Source: an uncultured Bacillota bacterium (GTDB taxonomy: Bacteria; Sysuimicrobiota; Sysuimicrobiia; Sysuimicrobiales; Segetimicrobiaceae). From it: DNA of 64,000 nt. A program made the position numbers and the translations under genes. Position 1 is the first letter of the stretch; every line of letters begins with the position of its first letter. Positions 7,497 through 30,000 of this stretch are shown here, piece after piece. The DNA lies in contig CAWDRG010000009.1 of NCBI GenBank assembly GCA_963804645.1, positions 352,001 to 416,000 on the forward strand, written 5' to 3'. Below the pieces are notes generated by a model that searched no databases, was not told where the DNA came from, and saw only the letters and a program-made list of their open reading frames with translations.

Positions 7497-10400
7497 ATGA
7501 CGAATCGGCTCCACCAGCGTTGGGAGTGGCTCGCCACGTTTGGGCCGCCGATCGGGGCGGTCATCGCGCTCGTCGTGCTCAGCCGCACGCTCGAGGTAGT
7601 GTACCCTCCCATCTCTCCGGAGCCGCCGGGCGGCAGCCTGCCCCACTTGCTCGCGTGGTTCATCAGCCTACCGCACTATCTGGGACTGTTTTTTACGCTG
7701 CCCGACCTCCTGGTGCTGTTCATCATCCTGGCCACGGCCGCCGAGTTTTGCCAGATCTCGCTCACCCACGGCGGCGCCACGACCTTTGGCCCGTGCATCA
7801 CGATTCCCGCGATCGTCATCATCGGCCCCGTCCCGGCGGCGGTCGTGGGCATGTTCGCTATGGCGCTCGGGAACGGCCTCTTCCGACGTCGGCCGATCAA
7901 GACCAGCATCTTCAACGTCGGGCAGCGTACGGTGTCGCTCCTGCTCGCCGGCGCGGCGTGGACGCTGCTGCTGCCGAACCATCCGGGGTTCGGGTATCCG
8001 AGCGTGGACCTCCTCGGGGACAATTTCATCATCATCCCGGTCCTCGGGATGCTCGTCGTGTACGCGCTCGCCACCGCGCTCCAGGTCAACCTGTGGCTGT
8101 CGGCGATCCGCCGGGAGCGGTTCGCCACCGTGTTCTGGGCCAACGCGGCGTGGCAGTTCCCGATCAGCACCACGTTCGGGGCGTCAGGACTCGCGGTGGC
8201 GCTGTTCCTGGCGGGGCGCCCGGCGACTCCGGTCGTGCCGTTCGTGATCGCGAGCTTCCCGCTCCTCGTGTTGACGGCGCGGCGGCAGGCGCTGCTGGAG
8301 GCCGAGAAGATCCACCGCGCGGTCAGCGACGTCCTGAAGACCCTGAATCTCGACGATCTGCTCGTCAAGCTCGGCGAGGAGGTCCGCCGCCTCGCCAACC
8401 CCGATGTCGTCTGCATCCTGCTGCAGGAGCCGGACGGCAGCAGCCGGGTCGGATTGATCAAGGGCGCCGAGCCGGCCGCCGTCGAGGCGCTGTGGACCGG
8501 AGACGGCAGCAGCCCGGTGGCGCAGGCCGCCGCCAGCGGCCAGACCGTGCGCATCGCCGACTACGCCAAATACGTGCGCCGGCGTCCCAAGGACCAGCGG
8601 CACTCCGCGCCCGCCTCGGTGTGCTCGGTGATCATCGCGCCGCTGTTCGCCGGCGAGACGCTGCTCGGGACGCTGATCGTCACCAAGGCCGTCCCGGGGT
8701 ACTTCACGGCATACCAGGAGCGCGTGGTCACGACGCTGGCCGCGCAGGGCGCGCTCGCCATCCACAACGCCCGCCTCTACCTGGCCTCGCAGCGCAACCT
8801 GGCGCGGGTGGCCGCGCTCCAGCAGGTCGCGCGGGCCGCCGTCGGCGGCGACCAGCTGCACGCGGTCGAGCAGACCATGGTCGACAGCGCCGTCGGGACC
8901 CTCGGGGCGAGCTGTGGCGTCGTCGCGCTCTACGACGCGGAAGCCGAGGCGCTCACCGGCGTCGCATTCCACAACGTGCCCCCCGAGGAAGTGGCCGGGT
9001 GGCGCGCGTCGGGCGCGCCGACGCTGTGGCAGGCGCGCCATGCGCAGGCGGCGCTGCGCCAGATGGGTCCGGTGGTGGTCGATGACCGCCGGGCGTCCGC
9101 GGACAACGGGTCCGCCGCCGCTCCCGGCCAGCCGATCGCGCTGGTGGCGGTACCCATGTCGTTCCAGGGACGGCCGATCGGCACCGTCGCCATCGGCCGC
9201 TCGGAGCCGCACCACTGGACCCCTGAAGAGATCGAACTGCTGCAGGCGCTCGCGAACGAAGGCGCCGTGACGATCGAGAGCGCCCGGCTCTCCCACGCCA
9301 CCGCGCGCCAGCTGCAGCAGATGCGCGCCCTGGAGCAGATCTCCGAGCGGATCAACACGGAGCACGACCTCGACGCGATCTTCAAACTGATCGAAGAGAG
9401 CGCGCACGACGTCCTTGGCGTCCACCGCTGCGTGATTTACCTCATCGACGGCGACGGCGGCACCACCATGCAGACCTACGGCAACGGCGTCCCCGACGAG
9501 TACCTGAAACTGCTCCACGCCCGCATCCGGCAGGGGGTCTCGATCGCCAACCGGGCGATGGACGAGCGCGAACCGGTGATCATCACCGACGCCCTCCAGG
9601 ACCCGAGAATTCCTCCGGAACTCCAGCGCTACGGCTTCCGCACGATCGCCACGTTCCCGCTGTCGTTTCACGACACCGCGATCGGGCTGCTCGCGTTCTA
9701 TCACGACACGGTGCACCGGTACACCGCAGGGGACGTGATGCTGGGCGGGGCGTTCGCCAACCAGGCGGCGATCGCCGTGCAGAACGCGCGCCTGCTGCAG
9801 GCGGCGGAGGCGCGCGCGCACCAGCTCGGACTGCTCCACCGGACGGTCACGCGCGTCGGCGCGTCGCTCAAGCCGGAAGAACTGTGCGAGACGCTCGTCG
9901 ACGAGCTGCACACGGCGCTCGGCTACCCTTTCGCGGCGATCTACCTGGTGCGCGACGACCGCATGGTCGTGATGTCCCACCGCGGGTACTCGCGCATCCC
10001 CAACGGGGACGAGGTCCTCAACGGCGTGATCGGCCGGACGATGAAAACAGGGCAGGCGCAGCTTGTCGAGGACGTCGCGCGCGATCCCGACTACGTCGCC
10101 GGCGATCCCGGCATCACCCAGGAGGCGGCGGTCCCGATCCTGCTCGAGGGTCGGGTGATCGGCGTGCTCAACGTCGAAACGGTCGACCCGGTGCTGACGC
10201 GTGCCGATGTCGATCTGCTCACCACCGTCGCGAGCGAGCTGGCCGCGGCATTCCGGAACGCCGAGCTCTTCAGCCAGGCGCAGCAGCGCCGGGACGACCT
10301 GCAGGCCCTGTACGAGATCGCACAGGAGCTCGGCACATCGCTGGAGGTGACCAAGATCGCCGATGCGCTCGCGTCGGCGACGTGCCAGCGCTTCGGCTAT

Positions 10401-13117: not shown

Positions 13118-14411
13118 GGTAGTGTCAAGTGTTTTGTGTAAATTCCCGTGAGAGAGAGCGCCTCGCCTGCCGGACATTCAGAGCCTGAACGATCGCATAG
13201 ATAATCCGATCACAGCTGGCCACGTTCGTGAAGCACGTCATGGGGCGCGTGCGCCGGCGGACTTCGCGAAACACCCGTTCAATCGCGTTCGTCGTGCGCA
13301 CCCGGCGCCAGTCCGCCTCGTTGACGGCATAGAAGCTGAGCAGAGCGTCCTCCTCGCGCGTCAGACAGGCGACCGCCGCGGGGGCGGTGGCCTGCCAGGC
13401 CTGGACCCACTGGCGCAGGAGGCGGCGCGCGGCGTGGGCGGTCGGCGCCTGATAGATTCGGCGCGCCATGCGCAGACACGCGTCCCGGTCCTTGACCCGC
13501 AGCCGATTGGCCACGTTGCGGAGGACATGGACCCAGCACGCTTGGCGCGGGACGTCCGAATAGACCAAATCGAGGGCGGCATGGAGGCCCCGCTGGCCGT
13601 CCGTCGTAATCAGCTGCAACTGCTTCCCGACTAACCCGCGGCAGGCCAGCGTCGTGAGAAAGGCTTCCCAGGTGGTTTGGGTCTCGTAGCGGGCCAGCCG
13701 GAAGTCGATCAGGTCCCGCTGCCCGGTCGGCCGAATGCCGTAGGCCACGAGAATCAAGCGGCGCTTGCTCCCCGCGAGCCCTTTCACCCGGAGGCTGACG
13801 GCGTCGAGGAACAGATACTGATAGTGATCGTCCAGCGTCCGGTGGTGGAAGGCCGCCGCGGCTTGATCCAAGGCCCGGGTGATCGTCGAGACGGTCGTGG
13901 GGCTCACGACATCGTCGAGGAGCTTGGCGAGGACGGGCCCGACCTGGCGGGTGGAGAGGCCGCCGAGGAAGACCGCGCGGACGAGCGCGTTGACGTCACT
14001 GGTGCGGCGCTGATAGCGGCCGAGCACCGAGGGCTGGAACCCACTCTGGCGGGCCCGGGGAAGATGGAGATCGGGGATGGTGCCCCACGTCGTCACCAAG
14101 CGGCGGCGGTAGACGCCATTCCGATACCCCTGCCGGTCCGGATTCCGAGTGTACCGGCCGGCATTCAGATGGTTGATCAACTCGTCATGCATCCGGTTCT
14201 CCAGCAAGAGCTTGACCGTGCGGAGCGTCTCTCGGGAGACATCCCCCCACAGGGTCGCTTCATCCTTGACCTCCTTCCAGAGATCGGCTACGGTGAGATC
14301 GGTCAGTGGTCGCACACTGGCCATGGGCGTATCCCTCCTTATGGTTGGTCAGGTCGGGGTACGCCCTCTCTTTTCGGGCTCCTGCTTTTACACACAATAC
14401 CGTACACTACC
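13118..14411 (-). mobile_element. IS256-family insertion sequence (1294 bp)
   Basis: 25-bp imperfect terminal IRs GGTAGTGTCAAGTGTTTTGTGTAAA / revcomp GGTAGTGTACGGTATTGTGTGTAAA (20/25); GCACCG direct repeat at 13112-13117 and 14412-14417. Confidence 0.9.
13125..14324 (-). CDS. IS256 (Mutator-like) DDE transposase
   Basis: YRNGVYRRRL, GLSTRQV, YLFLDA, ITTDGQRGL, QACWVHVLRN, RTTNAIERVFREVRRR. Confidence 0.95.
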   Translation of the reverse strand: MASVRPLTDLTVADLWKEVKDEATLWGDVSRETLRTVKLLLENRMHDELINHLNAGRYTRNPDRQGYRNGVYRRRLVTTWGTIPDLHLPRARQSGFQPSVLGRYQRRTSDVNALVRAVFLGGLSTRQVGPVLAKLLDDVVSPTTVSTITRALDQAAAAFHHRTLDDHYQYLFLDAVSLRVKGLAGSKRRLILVAYGIRPTGQRDLIDFRLARYETQTTWEAFLTTLACRGLVGKQLQLITTDGQRGLHAALDLVYSDVPRQACWVHVLRNVANRLRVKDRDACLRMARRIYQAPTAHAARRLLRQWVQAWQATAPAAVACLTREEDALLSFYAVNEADWRRVRTTNAIERVFREVRRRTRPMTCFTNVASCDRIIYAIVQALNVRQARRSLSREFTQNT

Positions 14412-18025: not shown

Positions 18026-20869
18026 GTGAGCATTGCCCAGCAGCTAGAACGCATCCCGCCCCAAAACCTCGAAGCGGAACAGGGCGTGCTGGGATCGATG
18101 CTGCTCGACCGCGACGCCATCGCCCGCGTTATCGAATCGCTGCGCGCGGAAGATTTCTATCGCGACGCCCACCGTGTGATTTACATGGCGATGACCGAAC
18201 TGTTCGAGCGCGGAGAGCCCGTGGATCTGATCACGGTTACAAACCGCCTCACCGTACAGGGCAAGATCGATGACATCGGCGGCGCCACATACCTTGCGTC
18301 GCTCCCGAACGTCGTCCCCACTGCCGCAAACGTGGACTTCTACGGCAGCATCGTGATGGAAAAATCCATGCTGCGCCAGCTGATCAGTGCCGGCACGCAC
18401 ATCGCCGCGCTTGGGTACGACGCCGCAGACGACGTCGCCGCCCTGATTGACCAGGCCGAAAAGATGGTGTTCGGCATCGCCGCCCGCCGGAATGTTCAAG
18501 ACTTCCAGGCGATCAAGGAGATCCTTAAGGAGAGCTTCGATAAGATCGACAAGCGCTATCAGGAAAAGGGCACCGTCACGGGGGTCGCGACCGGATTCAC
18601 CGACCTCGACATGCTTACCTCCGGTCTCCAAGACTCCGACATGGTGATCGTCGCAGCCCGGCCATCGGTCGGCAAGTGTTTGACCGCCGACGCCGAGATC
18701 CTCCTGGCGGACGGCAGCATCGTCACCATCGGCGAGATCTACCGGCGGCGGCAAGGACGGCTGATGACGCTCGGGAACGACTGGCGATTCCGGTTCACGG
18801 AACCGTCGGCGTTCGTGGACGACGGCCTGAAGCCCGCGTTCCGCGTCACCACCCGGCTCGGACGCCGGGTCGAGACGACGGCGAGCCATCCGTTTCTGAC
18901 GCTCGACGGCTGGCTGCCGCTTGCCGCGCTCCGCACCGGAGACCGCATTGCAGTGCCGCGCCGTCTCAGTGTATTCGGCAACAAACCCATGCGCGAGTGC
19001 GAGGTGAAGCTCCTCGCGTACTTCATCGGAGATGGCTCACTGACAGGCGGCAAGGCCGCATTCACGAACACAGATCCCACCATGCTGCGCGATTTCTCGG
19101 CAGCCGTGCGCGCGTTTGGCGGCGTGCGCTGCCGTCGTGAGCGTGATTGTAGTGGCCGGCGCGCGCCGACGCTCGCCGTCGCAGGGAATCCGATGTTCCG
19201 CCGACAGCAACGCCGCGAGTTCGCCGGGCAGCTTCGTGCGGCGCTGGGGACAGCCCGCGGTGCCCGGGCCAGCCTGGCGCGAGCGCTCGACGTCACCCCG
19301 GCGGCCGTGCTCGGCTGGTGTCGAGGCGAGCAGGTCCCGAAGGCACACCGGTTTGCGCAGTTGTGCGGGGTGGTCGGCGTACCACCCGACCGCCTCGCGC
19401 CGCACGGTTTTCCGCCTGTGAGCCGCAGCAGCCAGAACCCCGTCGTCCTCTGGCTGCAGGCCCTCGGACTCTGGGAAAAGAAGGCGGCGGAGAAGCGGCT
19501 GCCGGCGGCGGTCTTTACACTGCCGAAGGCGCAATCCGCCCTCTTTCTGAACCGGCTGTTCGCAACGGACGGATGGGCCGCGGCGAACGCAGTGACCCGT
19601 TTGGCGCACGTTGGATACGCGTCGAGCAGCGAACATCTCGTGCGGCAGATCCAACATCTGCTGCTTCGCTTTGGGATCGTCGCTTCCGTTCGGAGGCGCA
19701 GTGTCCGCTATCTTCGCGAACTACGCACAGCGTGGGAGCTGTGCATCACGGATCCCGCCTCGATTCGCACGTTTGCCGAGGAGATCGGGATCTTCCGCAA
19801 GGAGCGCAAACTACAGCAGGCGCTCACGGTCGTCGCCCGGCGGGGTCGTATCCCGAATCGCGACACCATCCCGCGAGCGGTATGGCGCACGATGGCTGAC
19901 GCGAAGGGCGCCGAGTCGTGGGCGTCGCTTGCACGGCGCGCTGGCTGGGCGAATACCGGAAACGTCCACGTCGGAGTACGCGCACCGTCGCGAGATCGCC
20001 TCTTGACGTTCGCAACAGCTCTCGCCCACGACGGCTTGCGGCAGCTCGCCCACAGCGACGTGTACTGGGACGAGATCGTGGCGATCGAACCGACGGGCGA
20101 GAAACAAGTCTATGATCTTACGATTCCGGAGACCCACAACTTTGTCGCCAACGACATCTGCGTACACAACACGACCTTTGCGCTCAACATCGCGCAGCAC
20201 GCCGCACTCACCCGCAAGATCCCGGTGGCGATCTTCAGCCTTGAGACGAGCAAGGAGCAGCTGGTCCAGCGCATCCTCTGCTCGGAAGCACAGGTGGACA
20301 ACAGCAAACTCCGCACCGGGTTCCTGGCGGACGAGGACTGGCGCAAACTGGCCCGCGCGATGGGAGGACTCAGCGAAGCCCCCATCTTCATCGATGATTC
20401 GGCGACGCTCTCCGTCATCGAGATGCGGGCAAAAGCCCGGAAGCTCAAGGCCGAGCATGGGCTCGGGCTGATCGTGATCGATTACATCCAGCTCATTCAA
20501 TCGTACCGGCGTACCGAGAACCGCACCCAGGAGCTCAGCGAGATCGCCCGCAACATCAAGTCGCTCGCCAAGGAGCTCGCTATTCCGATCATTGCGATCT
20601 CACAGCTCAGCCGCGCCGTCGAGGCGCTCGGGCAGAAGCGCCCGATGCTGAGCCACCTGCGCGAGAGCGGCGAGATCGAACAGGTGAGCGACCTCGTGCT
20701 GTTTCTCTATCGTGAGGATTACTACGATCAGGAGAAGGCGCACAAGGAGAACAAGGAAAATATCTGCGAGATCATCATCGCCAAGCACCGCAACGGTCCG
20801 ATCGGCACCGTGGAACTGTACTTCCACAAGGAGCACAGTCGGTTCGACAATCTGTCAAAACAACGATAA
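18026..20869 (+). CDS. dnaB: Replicative DNA helicase DnaB containing an intein
   Basis: PPQNLEAEQGVLG, AARPSVGK|TTFALNIA (Walker A split by intein), IVIDYIQL, ISQLSR, LRESGEIEQ, AKHRNGPIG. Confidence 0.97.
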   Translation: MSIAQQLERIPPQNLEAEQGVLGSMLLDRDAIARVIESLRAEDFYRDAHRVIYMAMTELFERGEPVDLITVTNRLTVQGKIDDIGGATYLASLPNVVPTAANVDFYGSIVMEKSMLRQLISAGTHIAALGYDAADDVAALIDQAEKMVFGIAARRNVQDFQAIKEILKESFDKIDKRYQEKGTVTGVATGFTDLDMLTSGLQDSDMVIVAARPSVGKCLTADAEILLADGSIVTIGEIYRRRQGRLMTLGNDWRFRFTEPSAFVDDGLKPAFRVTTRLGRRVETTASHPFLTLDGWLPLAALRTGDRIAVPRRLSVFGNKPMRECEVKLLAYFIGDGSLTGGKAAFTNTDPTMLRDFSAAVRAFGGVRCRRERDCSGRRAPTLAVAGNPMFRRQQRREFAGQLRAALGTARGARASLARALDVTPAAVLGWCRGEQVPKAHRFAQLCGVVGVPPDRLAPHGFPPVSRSSQNPVVLWLQALGLWEKKAAEKRLPAAVFTLPKAQSALFLNRLFATDGWAAANAVTRLAHVGYASSSEHLVRQIQHLLLRFGIVASVRRRSVRYLRELRTAWELCITDPASIRTFAEEIGIFRKERKLQQALTVVARRGRIPNRDTIPRAVWRTMADAKGAESWASLARRAGWANTGNVHVGVRAPSRDRLLTFATALAHDGLRQLAHSDVYWDEIVAIEPTGEKQVYDLTIPETHNFVANDICVHNTTFALNIAQHAALTRKIPVAIFSLETSKEQLVQRILCSEAQVDNSKLRTGFLADEDWRKLARAMGGLSEAPIFIDDSATLSVIEMRAKARKLKAEHGLGLIVIDYIQLIQSYRRTENRTQELSEIARNIKSLAKELAIPIIAISQLSRAVEALGQKRPMLSHLRESGEIEQVSDLVLFLYREDYYDQEKAHKENKENICEIIIAKHRNGPIGTVELYFHKEHSRFDNLSKQR
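18677..20170 (+). mobile_element. Intein (498 aa) with LAGLIDADG homing endonuclease in the DnaB P-loop
   Basis: Starts CLTADAE after GK; TASHPF block B; LLAYFIGDG and FLNRLFATDG; ends VYDLTIP..HNFVANDICVHN, +1 residue Thr. Confidence 0.95.
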
Positions 20870-20893
20870 CTACTGCGGCGGCGGAGTAGTAGT

Positions 20894-20957
20894 TGTAGGA
20901 TTCGATCCTATCTTGGCAATATCGAAGATATCTCGACATGGCAATTGTGAGGATATC
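20894..20957 (+). repeat. dnaB-proximal end type A, copy 1
   Basis: TGTAGGATTCGATCCTATCTTGGCAATATCGAAGATATCTCGACATGGCAATTGTGAGGATATC; homologous to 23130-23199 and 25132-25198. Confidence 0.85.
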
Positions 20958-21023
20958 GTGTGCCAGCGGGTGTTGATCCCAGCGAACGTATTGTGTCGCT
21001 ATCGCGCGCGCTGCGCTGTGGAT

Positions 21024-21053
21024 GGGCGGGCGGCCCGTACGGGCCGCCCGCCC
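21024..21053 (-). terminator. Perfect 30-bp palindrome downstream of the arylsulfatase
   Basis: GGGCGGGCGGCCCGT|ACGGGCCGCCCGCCC, 14 bp beyond the stop codon. Confidence 0.6.
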
Positions 21054-21067
21054 GGTTGACGCTTCGA

Positions 21068-22603
21068 CTACTGTCCGTGCTTTGCCATGGCTTCCTCGAT
21101 CTTCGCTTTCACCGCATCGAGGTTGAAGCTCGCGCCCTTCTGCGCCGGCGGGAACTCGATAGCCGTCATGGCCAGCTTCGCCACTCGCTGTTGGACGAAC
21201 ACGAAGCGCCAGAACTCGAATCTGAACCAGTCGAAGTATTGGTAGGATCCGAGATTTCCGTTCCCTTGTGGCCACGTCGTCTTCTCGAAGGGATCGAGGC
21301 GCAGGTTCACGAGCAGCGGCACGTCCGGGTGGTCCTTGGTACCAATCCAGCCGCCGGGCTGCACGATGAAAGTATATTTGAAGTCGTCGATCCGTACCGC
21401 GGCGAGGTTGCTCTCAGTAAAGTAGAAGATCTCGTTGCGGGCGGATGGCCCCTTGCCGGTGATCAGATCCATCTGATTGTAGCCGTCCAGATGCGTCTTG
21501 TACGTCGTTCCGCCGAGTTGTTTCCCCTTCTTGAGCTCATCGGCGATGTTCGGGTTGCCGGCCGCGGCCACGAAGGTCGCAAACCAATCCTGGCCCGAGA
21601 TGATGCCAGGCTCCACCACGCCGGCGGGGACCTTACCGGGCCAGCGAATCATCGCGGGACAACGGAACCCGCCTTCATAGCCCGTACCTTTGGCACCGTA
21701 AAACGGCGTCTGTCCGCCGTCGGGCCAGGTGAAGCTTTCCGTGCCGTTGTCGGTGGTGAACATGACGATGGTGTTGTCGTCCAGCTCGTTGTCTTTCAAG
21801 TACTGCATGAGCGCGCCGACGCTGTCGTCGAGCTGGGCCATGCCGGCTTCGTGAATGGTCCAGCCGTTCTTCGAATTCTGCAGGGCTTCGTACTTCGGCG
21901 ACAGATGGGTGACGATGTGCATGCGGGTCGGGTTGAACCAGAGGAAAAACGGTTTGCCGGCCGCCTTAGCCTTGTCGACGAACTTGAGGCTGGCCGCGAG
22001 AATTTCGTCGTCCACGGTCTCCATCCGCTTGGGATACAGCGTGCCGGCGTCCTCGATCTTCTGCTTGCCGACCTTGCCCCAGCGCGGCATCACCGTCGGG
22101 TCGTCCGTGTCCGTGGCCCACGAATGGACCATGTTGCGCGGGCCGACCGTGTTCAATAACTCCTGCGGATAGGCGGGGTGGGCGGGGTCCTCCATGGCGT
22201 CGAGGTGGTAGAGATAGCCGAAGAACTCGTCAAAGCCGTGGACCGTGGGCAGGTACTTATTCATGTCGCCCAAGTGGTTCTTCCCGAACTGCCCGGTCGC
22301 GTAGCCCATCTCTTTGAGGGCCGTCGCGATCGTCGGCGCAGAATCCGGCATCCCGACATCCGCCCCCGCCTGGCCGACGGTCGTGAGACCCGTGCGCATC
22401 GGGAGCTGGCCGGTGATGAACGCCGCCCGCCCCGCCGTGCAGCTTGCCTCCCCGTAGTAATCGGTGAACAGCATGCCTTCGCCGGCGAGCTTGTCGAGGT
22501 GCGGCGTCCGCCCGGCCATCATACCTCGATGGTACGCCCCGATATTCCAGATGCCGATGTCATCGGCCATGATCACGACGATGTTTGGTTGTTTTGTCGC
22601 CAA
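21068..22603 (-). CDS. Arylsulfatase
   Basis: PNIVVIMADDIG, SCTAGRAAFITG, GKNHLG, TTDNG, KGT.YEGGFR; TTG start after GGAGG. Confidence 0.92.
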   Translation of the reverse strand: MATKQPNIVVIMADDIGIWNIGAYHRGMMAGRTPHLDKLAGEGMLFTDYYGEASCTAGRAAFITGQLPMRTGLTTVGQAGADVGMPDSAPTIATALKEMGYATGQFGKNHLGDMNKYLPTVHGFDEFFGYLYHLDAMEDPAHPAYPQELLNTVGPRNMVHSWATDTDDPTVMPRWGKVGKQKIEDAGTLYPKRMETVDDEILAASLKFVDKAKAAGKPFFLWFNPTRMHIVTHLSPKYEALQNSKNGWTIHEAGMAQLDDSVGALMQYLKDNELDDNTIVMFTTDNGTESFTWPDGGQTPFYGAKGTGYEGGFRCPAMIRWPGKVPAGVVEPGIISGQDWFATFVAAAGNPNIADELKKGKQLGGTTYKTHLDGYNQMDLITGKGPSARNEIFYFTESNLAAVRIDDFKYTFIVQPGGWIGTKDHPDVPLLVNLRLDPFEKTTWPQGNGNLGSYQYFDWFRFEFWRFVFVQQRVAKLAMTAIEFPPAQKGASFNLDAVKAKIEEAMAKHGQ

Positions 22604-23020
22604 CTTCGACCTCCGCAGTCAATTTTGAACCCTCTCCGAGTGAGCGTGATCCCTCGTCGACTGACGGGCACCCTGCTCAGAGCCGTCCGGAACTGCAGTC
22701 ACCCCCTACGGATTCCGTCGTCGGTACGCTAGATCCGTGTGGCTCATGACATGGGCCGTCACGCCACTCGGACGGCCCAACCTGACCGAAAGACACTTGA
22801 AGATCGCTCGAGGGGGAATGACAACACCAAGAAGCACGTGGTGTTGCGTATTTGCATTCCCGATCTGTGCCCGTCGGAGGGGAGCCGGAATTTCCGAGAG
22901 TCTACGGGGAGATTAATGCGGCGGCCGTAGTCCGCCGGACCGAGCGAAGATGCCGGACTGTATGCGCCGATCGCCCTCCGCCAGTTCCCCCCAAGTCTAG
23001 CACTTGGGAAAGCGAATGGC

Positions 23021-23121
23021 CCATAGGAATTGCTAAGATATCCCGTCTCGAAGGTGCTCTGACGGGCGACTTTTGCCAAGATCTCCCCGGCCGGATTGCT
23101 AAGATAGGATCAAATCCTACA
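23021..23121 (+). repeat. dnaB-distal end type B, copy 1
   Basis: TTGCYAAGAT sites at 23030, 23073, 23096; terminus GATCAAATCCTACA; 84/101 ungapped identity (counted by eye) to 25022-25122. Confidence 0.88.
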
Positions 23122-23515
23122 CGACGACTTGTAGGATGCGATCCTATCTTGACAAAGTCGAAGATATCTCGGTAATGCGTTAGCAATTGCCAAGATATCC
23201 ACGCAGACCTCAATGCGGATCTACGGAATGGGGAGGACGAGAAGAATCGGAAGCGAGGACGGACATAACGAAGAAGAAGGGGGAGCGACCGCCGACATCC
23301 AACGAAATGACGGCCCGGCACCTGGACGTACTCCAGGCGAATCTACCACGGCCGAGAACGGGCGAGTCCCCCGATGAGTGAAGGAAGTGGCTCGATTCCT
23401 ATCGAACGCGAGGCGAACAGAGACAAGACGACTTAAATTAGGCCCCAGCGCCACGAGACTGCCTGATCGGCCCTCACATCGCAGCGCCAGCACGCACTAT
23501 CCGGAGGATCGCGCG

Positions 23516-24814
23516 ATGGATATCACCGTCCAGAACGGCTTGAGCGTTCCCGTGTACAGCTCCGTGGGCCACAGCGACGGCTGGCAGGTGGCCGACCTCC
23601 TGGGGAACACGGCGGGCTTGGTCACGGGCGTTACCGCCTTCGCAGAGGTCTCGGGGTTGGTTACGGTCATCAACGCGATCCAATTGGGAAACGCCGGCTT
23701 GGCCGCGGCGCAGCGGATCCCCGGCATTCTTCAGAAGTTCTGCTTCACCGTGCAGCCGGGCATGAGCCAATCGGCACGCGAGGCCATCGGGATCGCCGAT
23801 CAGTTCCGCGCGAGCTACTGGAACGATCTGTTCGGCGGCAAGAGCCTAGGCGTGTTCATGTCTAATACCGAACACGCCGTGCTGGTCAACGCCAGCACCA
23901 TCACGCCCCGCACGTACCGCGTCGAGGCCAAGGGGGCGCGGGAGGGCGGGTTTCTTCACCGCTGGGGCGAGCCTGGCTACTACTCCACGATGAATACGTC
24001 GGCACCGCCGTCCGTCGTCGCGTTCGGAGGCAAGTATCACATGTTCTTCCGCGACGGCAGCGGCAACGGCATCTTGCACGCCACCTCCGACGAGGGGATC
24101 TACTGGAAGGGCGCGGACCCATTCTATATCGGCGTCAACACCAGCTCCGCGCCGGCACCGGTGGTGTACAACAACCAGGTCTACATCTTCTTCCGCGACG
24201 GAGCGGGCAACGGCATCCTGTATGTCGTCTCCAAGGACGGCTACACGTTTACGGCACCGCAGAACTGGTACATCGGTCTGAATTGTGACGCGCAACCCTC
24301 GGTGACCGTCCACAACGGAGCGCTCCACCTGGTCGCGCGCGACCACGGGGGGGCCGGCGTCATGTACGCGTATCAAACCGCCACGGGATGGCAGCACGGG
24401 TACACGGGAGAGAACACGTCCGCGCCGCCGGCGGTCATCTCGTTCGCGAATCGCCTGCATGTCTTCTATAAGGACGGCGGCGCCAACAACGGCGTATTGC
24501 ACATGGTGTCCGACGACGGCGTCCACTACCGGCGCGCCGACGTCTACCACCCCGACATCACGACAAGCGCGGGACCCTGCCCGTTAGTCTATCGCGGAAA
24601 CCTGCTGCTGCTGTTTCGCGACGGGACGGGAAACGGCGTGCTCTACAGTATCTCCGCCGACGGCACCCAGTTTACCAACCCGCCCGATTGGTACCTGGGA
24701 CTGAACATCGACAACGAACCGTCGGCCGCCGTGCTGGGCGACCACCTCTGCATTCTGGGAAGGGACCCGGGCGGCAACGGGGTAATGTCGCAGGTCCCGG
24801 ACCTCAGTCCTTAG
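23516..24814 (+). CDS. Hypothetical protein: N-terminal domain plus six ~48-aa beta-propeller-like repeats
   Basis: ATG after GGAGG; repeats NTSAPPxxVxFxxxxHxFFRDGxGNGILxxxSxDG; the ORF track starts upstream at 23378. Confidence 0.8.
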   Translation: MDITVQNGLSVPVYSSVGHSDGWQVADLLGNTAGLVTGVTAFAEVSGLVTVINAIQLGNAGLAAAQRIPGILQKFCFTVQPGMSQSAREAIGIADQFRASYWNDLFGGKSLGVFMSNTEHAVLVNASTITPRTYRVEAKGAREGGFLHRWGEPGYYSTMNTSAPPSVVAFGGKYHMFFRDGSGNGILHATSDEGIYWKGADPFYIGVNTSSAPAPVVYNNQVYIFFRDGAGNGILYVVSKDGYTFTAPQNWYIGLNCDAQPSVTVHNGALHLVARDHGGAGVMYAYQTATGWQHGYTGENTSAPPAVISFANRLHVFYKDGGANNGVLHMVSDDGVHYRRADVYHPDITTSAGPCPLVYRGNLLLLFRDGTGNGVLYSISADGTQFTNPPDWYLGLNIDNEPSAAVLGDHLCILGRDPGGNGVMSQVPDLSP

Positions 24815-24841
24815 TCCGAGGGGGATCGGATGTGTTCAACA

Positions 24842-24876
24842 CGCCCCGCGCAGACGCTGTTCGTCTGCGCGGGGCG
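24842..24876 (+). terminator. Hairpin after the cassette-2 gene
   Basis: CGCCCCGCGCAGACG-CTGTT-CGTCTGCGCGGGGCG (15-bp stem). Confidence 0.6.
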
Positions 24877-25021
24877 CTGGTTGATCACCACGTCCTACTT
24901 ACAAAAAGAGCTAGACTATCGGCATCCGGAAGAGAGGCTATATCAGCGCGCGCTGCAAACCTGCGGATAACCACGTAATCCCTCGACTTTTATAGGAGCC
25001 CATTATCATGGGCGCGACGAT

Positions 25022-25122
25022 CCGTAGGAATTGCTAAGATATCGCCCCTCCAACGGTCTTTGCCAGGCTACTTTTGCTAAGATATCCCCGGCCAAATTGC
25101 TAAGATAAGATCAAATCCTACA
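25022..25122 (+). repeat. End type B, copy 2
   Basis: TTGCTAAGATA sites at 25031, 25074, 25097 (same 43/23 spacing as copy 1). Confidence 0.88.
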
Positions 25123-25131
25123 CTACATGTA

Positions 25132-25213
25132 CGCAGGATCGATCCGATCTTGGCAATTTCAAAGATATCTCGGCAACGTGTTGGCAGTAGCCGAGATACG
25201 ATCAAATCCTGCA
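25132..25213. repeat. 82-bp cargo-less mini-element (end A joined directly to an end-B terminus)
   Basis: CGCAGGATCGATCCGATCTTGGCAAT...TAGCCGAGATACGATCAAATCCTGCA. Confidence 0.65.
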
Positions 25214-25348
25214 ACACCCCCCACAGCAGACCGGTTGCTGTGTGTGAACAGCAGATCCTAATAGGTCTTTCCCCCCGTCACTTTGATGCCGGACGCCGAC
25301 ATCGCCATCGACGGCGGGCAGACACCCAGCGTGCGGAGCGGACCGAGA

Positions 25349-27379
25349 ATGGCAGATAAGCACGTGCATCTCACCCAGCGCTTCGCGATAAAGACGACGC
25401 CGGTCTTGCAGGCGCTGTTGATCGTCGCCGCGGGAGTGTGGGTCTTCTATCCTGCTATCCATGGCCAGTGGCTCTGGGATGATGACGTCCTCATTACAAA
25501 CAATCTACTGATCCACGATCCGGCGGGACTCTGGAAGACCTGGTTCGCCCCGACCATGAGTTTGATCGACTACTTCCCGATCACGGTCAGCGTGGAATGG
25601 CTGGCGTGGCGTGCGTGGGGACTGAACACGTTTGGCTACCATCTCACGAGTATCGTGCTGCACCTCACCAGCGCGCTGCTGGTGTGGCGTCTGTTGAGCA
25701 AACTGGGAATCCGGCTGGCGTGGCTGGGCGGACTCCTGTTTGCCATTCACCCGGTGATGGTGGAATCGGTGGCCTGGATCGCAGAACTCAAGAACACCCT
25801 CTCCCTACCTCCATTCCTGATCGCGATGTGCGCGTGGATCGACTACGAGGAACACGGGAAATGGACACACTACTGGCTGGCTCTCGGCCTGTTTCTCGTC
25901 GCGATGCTCTGCAAGACCACGATGGTGATGTTCCCGTTCGTGATCCTGCTCTATGCCTGGTGGAAGCGAGGGCGGATACGGGTCCGGGATCTGACAGGGA
26001 GCGCGCCCTTCTTCGTTGTGTCGCTCGTGCTGGGGCTCACCACGATGTGGTTCTTGCATCATGCGATGGCTCCCCAGGCCGTCCAACTCGGCGGCTTTCT
26101 CTCTCGCGTGGCATGCGCGGGTCTGTCGCTCGCGTTTTATTTCTCCAAGTCCGTGCTGCCCATTGGACTACTCCCGACGTATCCTCAATGGGCGGTCGGT
26201 CGCCCATCGCTGGTACAGTTTCTGCCGTGGCCGATTCTCGGTGGCGTGCTCTACCTATGCTGGGCCAACCGCGCCAGCTGGGGCCGGCATGCATTGCTCG
26301 GGCTCGGCTTCTTTCTCATCAACCTGGCACCTTTTGTGGGATTCACCGCGGCTGCGTACATGGACTTTACCTGGGTCATGGACCACACCCTGTACATTCC
26401 CTTGATTGGCTTAATTGGACTGGCGACGGCGGGGCTGGGCTGGCTCGACGATCGGGTGCCCGCGTCTACCCGGCCCTACGGCATCGGGATGGTCACGGTG
26501 GTGCTGGTCCTCTTGGCCGTCAGCAGCCGTGCGTACGCCGGACTCTACGTCAACCCAGAGACGCTGTGGACGTATACCGTTGAACGCAACTCCGACGCGT
26601 GGCTGGCTTACGATAACCTCGGCTATACGCTCACCAAGGCCGGAAAGTTTACGGAAGCAATCGGAGAATTTGAGCAGGCCCTCCGCATTAATCCCAATTA
26701 TGCCTCCACGCATGACGACCTCGGCACCGCCTTGTTCCGCGTCGGCCGGCTTCGGGAAGCGCAGCGTGAAGTCGAACAGGCCTTGCGGATCGACCCTGAT
26801 TCCGCCACCGCCCACAACAACCTGGCGACCATTCTGGTGCACCTCGGACGAATCCCAGAAGCCATTCAACAATTTCAGGCCGCCGTGCGGATCAATCCCA
26901 ATGATGCCGAGGCGCACAACGGCATGGGTACTGCCCTGGTCCAGAACGGTCAGTATGCGGATGCGGTGGAAGAATTCGAAGCGGCCTTGCAAATCAATCC
27001 TGATTTTTCCGAGGTCCACGACAACCTGGGGGCCATGCTCGCCCACTTCGGACAAATCCCCGAGGCCATTGAACAATTTCAGGCCGCCGTGCGGATCAAT
27101 CCCAATGATGCCGAGGCGCACTACGACATGGGGTTCGCCTTGACCCAGACCGGCCGGGATGAGGACGCCTTGGAAGAATTCGAAGCGGCCGTGCGGATCA
27201 ATCCCGATTTTGCCGAGGCTCACAACAATCTGGGGGTCATTCTGGCACGCCGCGGACGTATCCCAGAGGCCATTCAGCAATTTCAGGCCGCTGTGCAGAT
27301 CAATCCCAATTACACTGAGGCGCGACGTAATCTGACCCGCGTGCTCAATCGCGAGAAGACCTCTCCGCCCAGGCGCTAA
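25349..27379 (+). CDS. TMTC-like membrane protein (GT-C-type N-terminus) with C-terminal TPR repeats
   Basis: WLWDDDVLIT.N, YFPIT, GYHLTSIVLH, FAIHPVMVESVAWIAELKN, ETLW, about eight TPRs (AHNNLG...A.RINP). Confidence 0.88.
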   Translation: MADKHVHLTQRFAIKTTPVLQALLIVAAGVWVFYPAIHGQWLWDDDVLITNNLLIHDPAGLWKTWFAPTMSLIDYFPITVSVEWLAWRAWGLNTFGYHLTSIVLHLTSALLVWRLLSKLGIRLAWLGGLLFAIHPVMVESVAWIAELKNTLSLPPFLIAMCAWIDYEEHGKWTHYWLALGLFLVAMLCKTTMVMFPFVILLYAWWKRGRIRVRDLTGSAPFFVVSLVLGLTTMWFLHHAMAPQAVQLGGFLSRVACAGLSLAFYFSKSVLPIGLLPTYPQWAVGRPSLVQFLPWPILGGVLYLCWANRASWGRHALLGLGFFLINLAPFVGFTAAAYMDFTWVMDHTLYIPLIGLIGLATAGLGWLDDRVPASTRPYGIGMVTVVLVLLAVSSRAYAGLYVNPETLWTYTVERNSDAWLAYDNLGYTLTKAGKFTEAIGEFEQALRINPNYASTHDDLGTALFRVGRLREAQREVEQALRIDPDSATAHNNLATILVHLGRIPEAIQQFQAAVRINPNDAEAHNGMGTALVQNGQYADAVEEFEAALQINPDFSEVHDNLGAMLAHFGQIPEAIEQFQAAVRINPNDAEAHYDMGFALTQTGRDEDALEEFEAAVRINPDFAEAHNNLGVILARRGRIPEAIQQFQAAVQINPNYTEARRNLTRVLNREKTSPPRR

Positions 27380-27473
27380 GGCCTCTCAGATGTGGAGATA
27401 CGCCCGCTGAAACGGTGGGGCCAGAGGCCCGACAAGCGAGTGAATTCCCAGATCACTGAGGCCAGGCGACGCC

Positions 27474-27500
27474 CCGTAGGAATCGTTGAGATAGCCCCCG
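27474..27500 (+). repeat. Truncated, degenerate end type B (inner part only)
   Basis: CCGTAGGAATCGTTGAGATAGCCCC vs CCGTAGGAATTGCTAAGATATCGCC. Confidence 0.55.
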
Positions 27501-27717
27501 TGCCCCGCGAAGTTGCGTGGCGCGTCACAACGCGCAAGCAAGGGCAGAATGCCCGAATTCGCGCGAGAAAAGTGGGCCAAAGTATGAGTGATCGTTGAGG
27601 TCATTTGGCCCGCGTTGGCACCGCCGGGTGTGCGGGCTTTCTCGCTCCGCTCGGGGCGCTGGCCCGTTGAGCACGTCCGAAGCTCGATTCCACTGATAGA
27701 TGGGGGCGTGGGACACC

Positions 27718-27795
27718 CCGAAGGAATTGCTAGGATAGGCCCCGTTCGAAGACACCGCGTCGGACGCTCTTGCCAAGTTACGATCAGATCCTACA
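27718..27795 (+). repeat. End type B, degenerate copy lacking one 23-bp unit
   Basis: CCGAAGGAATTGCTAGGATA (site 27727), TTGCCAAGTTA (27770, 43-bp spacing kept), then CGATCAGATCCTACA. Confidence 0.75.
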
Positions 27796-27797
27796 GC

Positions 27798-27845
27798 TAT
27801 AGTAGCAATACCGAAACAATGTCATGGCAACCGCCAACATATCCT
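27798..27845 (+). repeat. Highly decayed end type A remnant
   Basis: TATAGTAGCAATACCGAA...CATGGCAACCGCCAACATATC aligns to TATCTTGGCAATATCGAA...CATGGCAATTGTGAGGATATC; TGTAGG terminus missing. Confidence 0.45.
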
Positions 27846-27999
27846 GAGCAAACAGGACCTAGCGCGAGCGACCAGAAAGACGGACGGTCACCGCGCCGCG
27901 GCACAATCATCGCAATCGTCTTCGCCGTCCGACGACAGCGCGCGTCGACGACAATGCGTGTCGCCCCCCGAACTAGACGCATAGGCGGCCGCTCGCCCC

Positions 28000-30000
28000 T
28001 TAAACCGACGATTCGCGTGGATCGACCGATGTGGTGTGCACCGGCAGGTCTTTGCGCCACCGCCGCTGGAACACCTGCCGACCGTCAAGGTCCGCTTCCA
28101 CGTCGACATGGATCACAAACGGCGTGGCCAACAGATTGGCTCGGATCGACACGCTGCCCGCGGAGCGGCGGTGCTGCACCAGGACCTCCGCGCGCAGGTT
28201 CGCCGTCCACGGACGATCGGCATCGGTGGTCACGATGCCGTGGTAATCCAGTCCCGTAATCGTGTGCGCGTCGAACCCCTGCTCGTAGTGGAACGTGGCT
28301 TCGTAGCTGACCGTCTTGCCGATAAGATCTCGGTGCACGACATGCGTTTCATCCGACCGCACGCCCGCGGAGAGACGCAGGAGACCGTCAGCATCGGCGG
28401 CCGGAAGCGACGGCGCGGGCAGCCCGGCGCCCCGGTCCGAGATGATCGGCAACTCGACCAGCGACGCCCTGGCGCCACCATAGTGAATCTGGAGTTCGTA
28501 CGGTTCGGGCGTGGGCCAGATCTCGGGGAAATCGGCGCCCGCGAGACACAGGCGCAAGCGGTGGCCCGCCGGTACCACCCGGCAGACCGGTGAGAGCGCC
28601 AGTGAGATCTGGCGGACTTCGTCGCGTGCCAGCGGGCGACGTGGATCGTGGGCGCTCTGCTGGCTGACGTTGGTCCATTCACGTGCGATGACGATGGAGC
28701 CGCCCCGGGGATCGACCTCGCAGAGCTTTACCGCAAGGGAGGGTGCTGGTGTGGTCGCAGACAGTACGACGTGGGCGATTGGTGTGCCACCCAGCTCGAG
28801 GTCCGAGGCGAGCGGCGGAGTCGTGTAGGAGAGTGAGCGATGGTCGTCCGCACTTTGATCGCTCGGCAATGGGATGCCGGCGATGCCGCCGTGCAGGGCC
28901 ACCGATTCGATGCCGACGCGCGAGTCATATACCCAGGTGTCCGACCCCGCGCGCTGCTCGTCCTCCCCGCGCGACAGTCGACCATCCGGGCCAACACGGA
29001 ACGCGACGCGCTCGGCGCGCGCGAGCGGCCAGTCAGCTTCGTACCGCCAGTAACCAGCGCCGAGGACATACACCGTCACCGGGGGCTCGCGATCCACGCC
29101 ATTCTCTATTCCCTTGAGCCAGCGATCCCACCACCGGTCCATTTCACGGAGCGCGCCGATCGGGTGCACGGGAGAGAAATCCGGGAATGCATGCTTCCAC
29201 GGTCCCATCAGGATGCGTTTCGGTCCGTGAAGGGCTTCGTAGACCATGAAGCTGGGTCCCGCGTACTTGTCGTGCCAACCCGAGATAAGAAACGTCGGGA
29301 CCGCAATGCGCTCGTACGGAACGCGGCGGCGAAGCCAGAAGTCGGGATCCGGAGGCTCGCCGTGCCATGAGAGGAGCCACGGCATGTTGGCCTCGAGCCG
29401 TTCGCGCCAAATCTCCAGCCACCGGTCGCCGTCCTCTTGGATGAGGGGCGGGGCCAGGTTCGTGGCCACCAGGCGGGGGGCCCAACTTACCTCGTTGTAC
29501 ATCAGCCCCTGGCATCCGTGGGGACGCAGGTACCAGTCGTAGTTGTCGAAGGTCCCGTGGATCGGGACGATCGCCTTCAAGTGCTGCGGGCGCGTCGAGG
29601 CGATGCTAAGGGACGTGCATCCACCGTAGGAAGTGCCCCACAAGCCGACGGCCCCGGTACACCAGGGCTGCACTGCGATCCACTCCACGACGGCATGTCC
29701 ATCCGCCCGCTCCTGAGGATCAAACGGAAATGGGTTCGTGCCTTCGGAGCAGCCCACGCCGCGAAAGTCCACGTCCAGGGTGGCGTAACCGCGGCTCGCG
29801 AAGTGCTGGTGCGCCGCCGCGCGTATCGCGGCACTTCGCGTGCCGTCCTTATGGTACGGCGTAAAGGAGAACACCGCAGGAAACGGCCCCCCGGTATCGG
29901 GCAGCAGCAGATTCGCCGCCAGCTGCACACCATCTGGCATGGGGATCCGGATGTTGCGCGCCGCCTTCAGACCCGAAGCCGCGGTGTTTGACGATGGCAT
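28000..30000 (-). CDS. CocE/NonD family hydrolase
   Basis: IPMPDGVQLAA, TPYHK, DFRGVGCSEG, GLWGTSYGG, GWHD, MGPWKH. Confidence 0.9.
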   Translation of the reverse strand: MPSSNTAASGLKAARNIRIPMPDGVQLAANLLLPDTGGPFPAVFSFTPYHKDGTRSAAIRAAAHQHFASRGYATLDVDFRGVGCSEGTNPFPFDPQERADGHAVVEWIAVQPWCTGAVGLWGTSYGGCTSLSIASTRPQHLKAIVPIHGTFDNYDWYLRPHGCQGLMYNEVSWAPRLVATNLAPPLIQEDGDRWLEIWRERLEANMPWLLSWHGEPPDPDFWLRRRVPYERIAVPTFLISGWHDKYAGPSFMVYEALHGPKRILMGPWKHAFPDFSPVHPIGALREMDRWWDRWLKGIENGVDREPPVTVYVLGAGYWRYEADWPLARAERVAFRVGPDGRLSRGEDEQRAGSDTWVYDSRVGIESVALHGGIAGIPLPSDQSADDHRSLSYTTPPLASDLELGGTPIAHVVLSATTPAPSLAVKLCEVDPRGGSIVIAREWTNVSQQSAHDPRRPLARDEVRQISLALSPVCRVVPAGHRLRLCLAGADFPEIWPTPEPYELQIHYGGARASLVELPIISDRGAGLPAPSLPAADADGLLRLSAGVRSDETHVVHRDLIGKTVSYEATFHYEQGFDAHTITGLDYHGIVTTDADRPWTANLRAEVLVQHRRSAGSVSIRANLLATPFVIHVDVEADLDGRQVFQRRWRKDLPVHTTSVDPRESSV

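Follow-up and report, generated by a model that had tools for sequence, protein, structure and literature searches.

The sequence analysed here, hereafter the window, is a stretch of 64,000 nucleotides (positions 352,001 to 416,000 of contig CAWDRG010000009.1, assembly GCA_963804645.1) from the metagenome-assembled genome (MAG) of an uncultured bacterium. This source genome, G000, comprises 22 contigs and 5.3 Mb and is estimated to be 96.8% complete. Beginning 24 nt past the stop codon of an intein-containing dnaB gene, the window carries an array of three head-to-tail single-gene units and a truncated fourth. The complete units span 20894-23121 (2228 bp), 23130-25122 (1993 bp) and 25132-27795 (2664 bp). 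Each is bounded by TGTAGGAT...ATCCTACA tips and has two to three subterminal TTGCYAAGATATC-like sites per end; we term the left ends A1 to A3 and the right ends B1 to B3. The features of the locus are listed below, with bit scores from R1, a profile model of the ends that was built from 15 tips and for which E<=0.01 was taken as positive.

18026-20869, + strand: dnaB, intein-containing (Pfam DnaB, DnaB_C, Intein_splicing, LAGLIDADG_3)
20870-20893: 24-nt flank from the dnaB stop to the first end, triplet-periodic (CTACTGCGGCGGCGGAGTAGTAGT) and ending in GTAGT, read from the sequence
20894-20958, + strand: end A of unit 1, tip TGTAGGAT and subterminal sites (R1, 36.1 bits)
21024-21053: perfect GC hairpin (15+15 nt) shortly beyond the stop codon of the sulfatase gene, belonging to the cargo module (inverted-repeat search)
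21068-22603, - strand: cargo 1, sulfatase (Pfam Sulfatase, 5e-51)
23021-23121, + strand: end B of unit 1, three TTGCYAAGAT-type sites and tip ATCCTACA (R1, 35.2 bits)
23122-23129: 8-bp spacer CGACGACT between units 1 and 2 (sequence and inverted repeats)
23130-23199, + strand: end A of unit 2 (R1, 30.2 bits)
23378-24814, + strand: cargo 2, internally repeated protein of 478 amino acids (open reading frame, internal DNA repeats)
24843-24875: perfect GC-rich hairpin with a 14-bp stem after cargo 2, read from the sequence
25022-25122, + strand: end B of unit 2 (R1, 39.2 bits)
25123-25131: 9-bp spacer CTACATGTA between units 2 and 3, read from the sequence
25132-25213, + strand: end A of unit 3; its tip is mutated (CGCAGGAT) and it continues into a B-type tip in inverse orientation, ATCCTGCA (R1, 22.3 and 24.2 bits)
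25283-27379, + strand: cargo 3, PMT_2 membrane glycosyltransferase-like protein with tetratricopeptide repeats (TPR; Pfam PMT_2 and many TPR families)
27466-27499, + strand: additional copy of the innermost B-end site (repeat search, 79%)
27715-27795, + strand: end B of unit 3, shorter than B1 and B2 by a single 23-nt site unit (alignment; R1, 25.1 bits)
27796-27850, + strand: decayed, truncated A end of a fourth unit, first 13 nt gone (global alignment to A1)

A unit consists of end A, one gene with its own upstream region, and end B, and units 1 and 2 include a hairpin as well. This alternation directly after dnaB had been proposed in an initial annotation made from the sequence alone, and it was confirmed by motif counts, shuffled controls and a repeat search. 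The 8-mer TGTAGGAT occurs five times in the window, at 20894 and 23130 on the forward strand and at 23114, 25115 and 27788 on the reverse strand; shuffled versions of the window contain a mean of 0.30 copies, and none of 100 shuffles reached five. The repeat search recovered the A family (at 20903, 23139 and 25140), a 105-nt B family (copies at 23021 and 25022, 83% identical) and a 26-nt tip family with five copies. It also recovered two inverted pairs, A1 with B1 (27 nt, 93% complementary, 25 of 27 positions agreeing) and B1 with A2 across the 8-nt spacer. The array has a GC content of 60.3%, below the 66-67% of the 10-kb flanks to its left and right, which agrees with the greater AT-richness noticed at the outset.

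The copies have diverged to different extents. The A ends are mutually 72-77% identical and B1 and B2 are 84% identical, whereas B3 is only 59% identical to either; the agreement between paired tips is 93, 78 and 71% inside units 1, 2 and 3, respectively. The A end annotated at 25132 is present, but its tip CGCAGGAT carries a 1-nt deletion and it runs into the B-type tip ATCCTGCA at 25188-25213, so that 25132-25213 taken alone is an 82-bp cargo-less mini-element with a tip at both sides. What had been called a partial B copy at 27474 is B-related but corresponds to the innermost B site only. The decayed A end placed at about 27798 proved real: without its first 13 nt it aligns to positions 14-67 of A1 with a score of 16, compared with 3.6 +/- 1.85 for 500 shuffles, none of which reaches 16. 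Both hairpins assigned to units 1 and 2 exist, but neither has a T-run and a terminator scan calls neither; an Rfam scan of 20000-28500 gave no match.

Two observations in metagenome contigs concern the same region. About 212 bp between the extra inner-site copy and end B3 (27461-27672) are missing in contigs of peat runs X2 and X3, and this form is a strain-level variant that affects non-coding sequence at the tail of unit 3. In run X1, a single contig of low depth joins 23121 to 25070 with 11 other letters between them.

Architecture of the ends

Each end begins with a terminal box of 8 bp (TGTAGGAT), followed by a site whose core, read inward, is TATCTTRGCAA (TTGCYAAGATA on the other strand). 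The subterminal sites are roughly 13 bp long, number two to three per end and are laid out differently at A and B. At B ends, three sites that share one orientation lie about 0, 23 and 65 nt from the tip, with GTAGGAA preceding the innermost. A ends have the terminal site, a near-palindromic second site about 20 nt further in and, in what we term the TTGC variant, an inverted third site. A second site variant, AATGGCCAACTA (the AATGGCC variant), is found in most relatives, with the tip box and general layout retained.

The ends of Mu, Tn7, Tn5053/Tn402, Tn552 and IS21 have TGT/ACA tips and several subterminal sites arranged unequally at the two ends. The ends described here likewise combine TGT/ACA tips with asymmetric subterminal site arrays, as Tn7-like ends do, and the claim that each unit lies between two matched but asymmetric ends of transposon type was upheld. 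Judged by these sequence features, the architecture is of the type used by the DDE transposases of Mu, Tn7, Tn5053 and IS21; the class of the enzyme, its action in trans and its choice of target we infer. Copies of IS21 in genomes of the same family (f1) resemble these ends in general design and are unrelated to them in sequence.

Cargo genes

The first gene, on the reverse strand, is a sulfatase and the third combines PMT_2 with TPR domains, but the assignment of the second as a propeller protein is backed only by weak Atlas leads to Beta-prop_PLL clusters, with scores of 0.81 or less. Cargo 2 has no Pfam or NCBIfam match, and these leads suggest that it is possibly of beta-propeller lectin type.

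The interior of unit 1 (21024-22707), which comprises the hairpin, the gene and some 100 bp of upstream sequence, has a paralogue on another contig of the same genome (G000:C19:224447-226128), 89.5% identical in DNA and 93.7% in protein. The paralogue has the same hairpin and no ends, so that the cargo module amounts to a normal gene of host type that was placed between ends. Contig C19 is rich in insertion sequences (ISs), and the paralogue lies about 2.5 kb from an IS3 copy.

Cargo was surveyed beside about 25 ends in 10 genomes and three metagenome contigs. Units are 1-3 kb long, with one of 9 kb, and mostly carry one gene. The functions seen are diverse: the 3' end of a methyltransferase-like gene, an EEP-family nuclease/phosphatase, DoxX, CMD, YCII, an HTH-type gene beside a broken gene, LysE, a solute-binding protein, creatininase, RibD_C and SDR. 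The 9-kb unit, on metagenome contig L074, carries genes for an Mrr_cat-like protein, HD-GYP and GGDEF proteins, a histidine kinase and a secreted-looking protein of 650 amino acids. No transposition gene was found within any unit examined or beside any end examined. The gene next to the A end of the L074 unit (1167-2087) encodes 307 amino acids with a C-terminal Mrr_cat (PD-(D/E)XK) nuclease domain (E=6e-7); this protein is probably cargo, and is of note since TnsA also has a restriction-enzyme fold.

Distribution of the end family

For comparison we used 94 genomes of the phylum-level lineage, of which 23 belong to family f1 (G000 and 22 others) and 71 to other families; retrieval at the order, class and phylum levels gave the identical 94 genomes. 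Within G000, a fuzzy scan of all 22 contigs placed the 26-nt tip at C9:372894-379795 only, and R1 agreed, in line with the expectation that the ends are not scattered genome-wide. Two further tip matches in G000, each with seven mismatches, lacked the tip motif and were set aside. R1 detected ends in eight of the 94 genomes, all of them in f1 (G000 and 7 of the 22 others), and in 0 of the 71 genomes of other families. Three more f1 genomes gave weaker matches (E 0.015-0.6).

In the public collections, a first pattern scan across GTDB returned nothing, and a second returned a contig of the congener G001 as its sole match; G010 and G007 were also expected as matches to the second pattern, so that either its zero-length gap or collection membership limited that scan. 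The end patterns had no match in IMG/VR, PLSDB or the phage set. The initial annotation had not recognised these ends from any described element, and the lack of matches in those three collections and in GTDB species genomes outside f1 bears this out. A scan of JGI metagenomes with one pattern yielded five loci, three true and two by chance (L073 and L075, with 37-40% GC and no R1 match). In G011:C19, a string resembling a B tip falls within a permease gene and was not accepted as an end.

Ends also occur at loci other than the dnaB flank. Among other places, they lie beside pilin-like genes at G011:C28, about 1 kb from a tRNA-like sequence at G006:C205, and adjoining a 35-codon dnaB fragment at G001:C69. 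The G011 insertion among pilin-like genes is on a 5.4-kb contig, and units therefore reach plasmid-type replicons. At the G001 locus (L067, 11467-12700), dnaB residues 821-855 (77% identical) stand 1.1 kb upstream of a B end with flank GTAGTAGAGG; it looks as if a piece of a dnaB-linked array had been copied to a second locus. The uniform A-to-B polarity noted for the window is not a rule of the family: a tail-to-tail pair of B-type ends is present at G002:C105, and orientation at G007:C273 is mixed.

The dnaB 3' flank

The sequence downstream of dnaB was compared in the eight genomes with enough sequence there (G000, G001, G002, G003, G006, G010, G011 and G012). In five of them, ends or remnants are present no more than about 2.2 kb past the dnaB stop. 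Besides the array in G000, there is a B end 1.1 kb downstream in G001 (R1, E=3e-8); a remnant 8-50 nt past the stop and a B end at 1.1 kb in G003; a tip-less A end from 10 nt past the stop and a small remnant in G006 (weak, E=0.04, and clear by eye); and, at 1.5 kb in G010, a B end, a 7-bp spacer and an A end. No ends were found downstream of dnaB in G002, G011 or G012. Ends seen by eye right after the dnaB stop in G001 and G002 were unsupported by R1 and were not counted. The distance from dnaB to the ends is thus variable.

Gene content behind dnaB varied among relatives, the downstream genes being unlike in every genome compared. The flank carries the sulfatase, repeat protein and PMT-TPR genes in G000, two unknown ORFs in G001, a creatininase gene in G003, a remnant followed by arginase in G006, and RibD_C followed by SDR in G010. 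For several relatives, the alignment to the final 594 nt of dnaB breaks into two near query position 369; this would point to a second insertion elsewhere in their dnaB, perhaps another intein.

Nature of the probable mobile unit

Evidence on what moves comes from relatives, not from the window. On L074, the 9-kb unit has an A end (at 999) and a B end (at 9992) of the TTGC variant, and its neighbours across both junctions are ends of the AATGGCC variant. Variants thus pair across the cargo and mismatch across the junction, as expected of a transposon running from A through cargo to B and not of a cassette site composed of B, spacer and A. We therefore favour end-cargo-end as the probable mobile unit. 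In addition, G010:C58 and G010:C16 share a cargo 3' end that is followed by a B end, with unlike flanks.

With its tips positioned by family alignment, the isolated unit at G011:C28 is flanked left and right by CACGG (5 bp); the tips themselves are mutated (CGT... and ...AGA). The left flank of the L074 unit is ATAGT and its right flank is GTAGT, which agree at four of five positions. GTAGT or ATAGT (RTAGT, with a background of 5.4e-4 per position in the genome) forms the immediate flank of 5 of the 25 tabulated ends, where 0.014 would be expected, and also flanks the L074 junctions. Longer flanks are triplet-periodic, often TAGTAG(A/T)GG, and the spacer GTAGTAGT, of 8 bp, is compatible with a pair of GTAGT targets (5 bp each) that are offset by 3.

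Search for the moving enzyme

Pfam profiles of the relevant transposition proteins gave negatives that differ in weight. PF09299 (Mu-transpos_C) had no match in the 23 f1 genomes, a weak negative because few or no control genomes gave matches. TniQ (PF06527) had none over the cut-off in the same genomes, the controls leaving its sensitivity unproven; one match (E=0.009) contains a stop codon. TnsA_N (PF08722) and DDE_2 (PF02914) were without matches in G000, again weakly, with controls mostly silent. The PF05621 matches in G000 are to ClpB-type ATPases only. G000 has 18 matches to PF00665 (rve) and five to PF22483 (Mu-transpos_C_2).

Several resident elements were considered as helpers and rejected. 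IS21 is intact on C22 of G000, with fragments on C4, C15 and C20, and IS21-type genes are present in 6 of 8 end-bearing genomes against 3 of 15 other f1 genomes. However, the IS21 copies of G000, G002, G003, G006, G007 and G009 have unrelated ends, and the end-bearing genomes G001 and G010 have no IS21-type genes. A 354-residue IS3/IS481-like rve protein is common to G000 and G011, the two genomes that have TTGC-variant ends; it belongs to an ordinary IS with its own boundaries, and among the other end-bearing genomes it has only a weak match in G002 (E 3.4e-11, 27% identity).

A Pfam scan of 47 ORFs in the window assigned none to an integrase or recombinase family. The absence of a mobility gene, claimed for the window as a whole, is true of the array, but an unrelated IS256-family copy lies elsewhere in the window, at 13118-14411. 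Its 25-nt inverted repeats are unrelated to the array's ends, and it was rejected as their source. This copy (Transposase_mut, inverted repeats GGTAGTGTCAAG...) sits between a DUF2299 gene and rpsF; other contigs hold seven full-length copies (92-99.9%), one interrupted copy (C2) and a 73% relative (C15), and the IS256 copies carry ends other than those of the array. Further upstream, at 1794-2911, the DnaJ J-domain is encoded by one ORF (1794-2504) and DnaJ_C by the next (2501-2911); the split may be due to a frameshift, to misassembly or to the way in which ORFs were picked.

Interpretation and alternative explanations

We interpret 20894-27850, with a probability of about 0.6, as an accretion array of three complete and one truncated non-autonomous cargo mini-transposons, similar to mobile insertion cassettes, at a dnaB-linked hot spot. 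A transposase encoded elsewhere would bind the subterminal sites and bring together an A end and a B end that share a site variant. The unit would then be inserted with a 5-bp duplication, preferentially into RTAGT or triplet-repeat sequence such as that just downstream of dnaB, and repeated insertions there would stack units 7-9 bp apart. The end family and the docking place behind dnaB are new, while the accretion of cargo mini-transposons at an attachment site is of a known kind.

Several observations weigh against this interpretation. The proposal of mobilisation in trans gained no support from the genomes, since no cognate transposase was found in G000 or its 22 f1 relatives, and the rve and Mu-transpos_C_2 genes inspected belong to IS3, IS481, IS21 and ISNCY-type elements with unrelated ends. 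Nor did a copy of the ends enclosing transposition genes come to light: no autonomous element with the same ends was found in G000, the 22 relatives, GTDB species genomes (two patterns), JGI metagenomes (one pattern), IMG/VR, PLSDB or the phage set. As all genomes are multi-contig MAGs, an autonomous element that is plasmid-borne or multi-copy could have escaped every bin; the cassette-moving transposase is possibly plasmid-borne or of an unrecognised family. The 5-bp duplication appears in one clean case and is to that extent a provisional feature. No flank duplication is seen at the three units of the window, whose flanking 5-mers are GTAGT/CGACG, CGACT/CTACA and ATGTA/none. The read-level data consist of Logan contigs, short and of low depth, that come from metagenomes of peat and bioreactors; none of these contigs spans an empty site or an excision joint. 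Finally, three units of the same variant stand side by side in the window, which target immunity of the Tn7 type would oppose; their adjacency would speak against a strong form of it. Because its ends are eroded, the A3 tip is mutated, B3 is shortened, the fourth A end is tip-less and flank duplications are absent, the array in the window looks old and is probably no longer mobile.

An integron-like mechanism would treat B end, 7-9-bp spacer and A end as one recombination site, with a tyrosine or serine recombinase encoded elsewhere moving circular cassettes. Such junctions, with 26-nt inverted arms, do recur (in the window, G010:C148, G007:C189 and L074), and the failure to find a transposase would suit this view. 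We nevertheless regard it as improbable: on L074 the end variants pair across the cargo and mismatch at both junctions; some units stand alone, with a single A end, a single B end and ordinary flanks, one of them showing a 5-bp duplication; the leftmost A end is not joined to a B end; and no ORF of the window was assigned to an integrase or recombinase family. Spacers also differ within a single array (CGACGACT and CTACATGTA), and tyrosine recombinases are not known to tolerate differing spacers. We give no more credence to the possibility that the units are gutted remnants, once-autonomous Tn7-like or IS21-like transposons that lost their transposition genes by deletion. The window's ends are eroded, and Tn7-like elements do pile up and decay at attachment sites, as with the nrdB remnants described in PMC11014353. 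However, no tns- or ist-type gene fragment accompanies the approximately 25 ends surveyed, TnsB/TniQ-type markers exceed the cut-off in no f1 genome, and unit 1 encloses a single uninterrupted gene together with its hairpin and upstream region, an interior that is co-linear with an ordinary paralogue on the chromosome.

A somewhat better case, still an unlikely one, can be made for homologous recombination, in which the 70-100-bp ends and the dnaB flank would serve as homology arms, for example after DNA uptake, with transposition confined to the distant past. The cargo behind dnaB varies among congeners while the ends persist, the window units are without flank duplications, and at G007:C189 and L074 two left units abut the same right unit across the GTAGTAGT spacer. 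This leaves unexplained the origin of the units, their insertion at unrelated loci (G011:C28, G010:C58/C16 and G006:C205) and the flank duplication; moreover, the window's ends are just 59-84% identical, a poor substrate. Hardly credible, in our estimation, is that the repeats are clustered binding sites for a host protein, lying between genes by chance and not part of mobile DNA. The palindromic site core AAGATATCTT and the missing transposase would be compatible with it. Yet the repeats are at one locus only in G000, always as inverted TGT...ACA-tipped pairs around unrelated genes, and they occur at non-homologous loci in relatives, one with a flank duplication and another being the same cargo at two loci.

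Beyond the accretion of mini-transposons, a stronger proposal can be offered only tentatively, and we think it rather less likely to be right. A fixed dock behind dnaB would take single-gene cassettes with ends of the Tn7/Mu style, added or swapped by a transposase that is never cassette-linked. This would constitute an integron analogue with at least two orthogonal specificities (TTGCYAAGATA and AATGGCCAACTA) sharing an RTAGT-repeat dock. The earlier picture of an integron-like platform built from transposon-like ends was largely right in structure and is putative in mechanism. If the reading as accreted mini-transposons holds, cassette arrays could be built by homing mini-transposons, and not solely by integron integrases, in a little-known uncultured lineage of soil and peat; the dnaB 3' flank would be a new attachment site, and the ends a new family for machinery of the Mu/Tn7 type. 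It also raises the question of which enzyme moves cargo units of 1-9 kb that never carry it. Two orthogonal end sets homing to a short, definable target would be of interest for site-specific insertion tools, and cassette content could mark strain-level variation in these populations.

Comparison with known systems

In design, the array comes nearest to Tn7-like elements at their attachment sites and to mobile insertion cassettes. With Tn7-like transposons (Tn7 at glmS, Tn6022 at comM and tRNA-targeting relatives) it shares TGT/ACA tips and multiple asymmetric subterminal sites. Possible further parallels are a 5-bp flank duplication (in one clean case) and insertion and accumulation shortly downstream of a conserved essential gene that is left intact, seen in five of the eight genomes compared and at a variable offset. 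It differs in that neither the array units nor the 23 f1 genomes have matches to tnsA, tnsB, tnsC or tniQ over the cut-off, in the small size (1-3 kb, one of 9 kb) and mostly single-gene content of its units, and in the adjacency of same-variant units, contrary to target immunity. Tn6022 shows strong target immunity and requires its TGT/ACA tips, as described in PMC11014353. On that description the immunity disfavours a classical Tn7 mechanism for three same-variant neighbours, and the tip requirement fits with the mutated-tip copies being dead. The word dnaB is absent from the main text of two large surveys of Tn7 (PMC10293859 and PMC8649781), and a full-text search found no literature joining Tn7-like elements, an attachment site and dnaB.

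Mobile insertion cassettes (MICs) likewise consist of transposon ends around passenger genes, lack a transposase and are presumed to move in trans. MIC231 of Bacillus cereus, for instance, is reportedly moved by IS231A. Tn3-derived MICs have been described in Xanthomonas (PMC4337579). Whereas MICs are dispersed and have a known cognate IS, the array has no known cognate element with the same ends, its ends are multi-site and asymmetric, and its units are stacked at one hot spot. With the IS21 family the array shares TGT...ACA tips and repeated subterminal sites. Another shared trait is the abutted-end junction with a short spacer, which is a reactive form in IS21. IS21 elements carry istA and istB and no cargo, whereas the array units lack both istA (rve and Mu-transpos_C_2) and istB; IS21 is not known to home next to a gene.

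Derivatives of class 1 integrons and Tn402 offer another parallel, having an end pair of the Mu/Tn7 superfamily with no working transposase of their own and relying on a helper. Defective Tn402 derivatives (IRi/IRt) keep tni remnants and are moved by Tni proteins in trans; at the array there are neither tni remnants nor a known helper family. Compared with integrons proper, the array has no intI, attI or attC and differs on every defining feature examined: its boundaries are in two parts whose halves belong to different units, as the end variants of L074 indicate, its cargo lies in either direction, and units 1 and 2 have their own hairpin. Functionally it does resemble an integron array, with which it shares the head-to-tail arrangement of mostly single, unrelated and strain-variable genes at one fixed chromosomal place.

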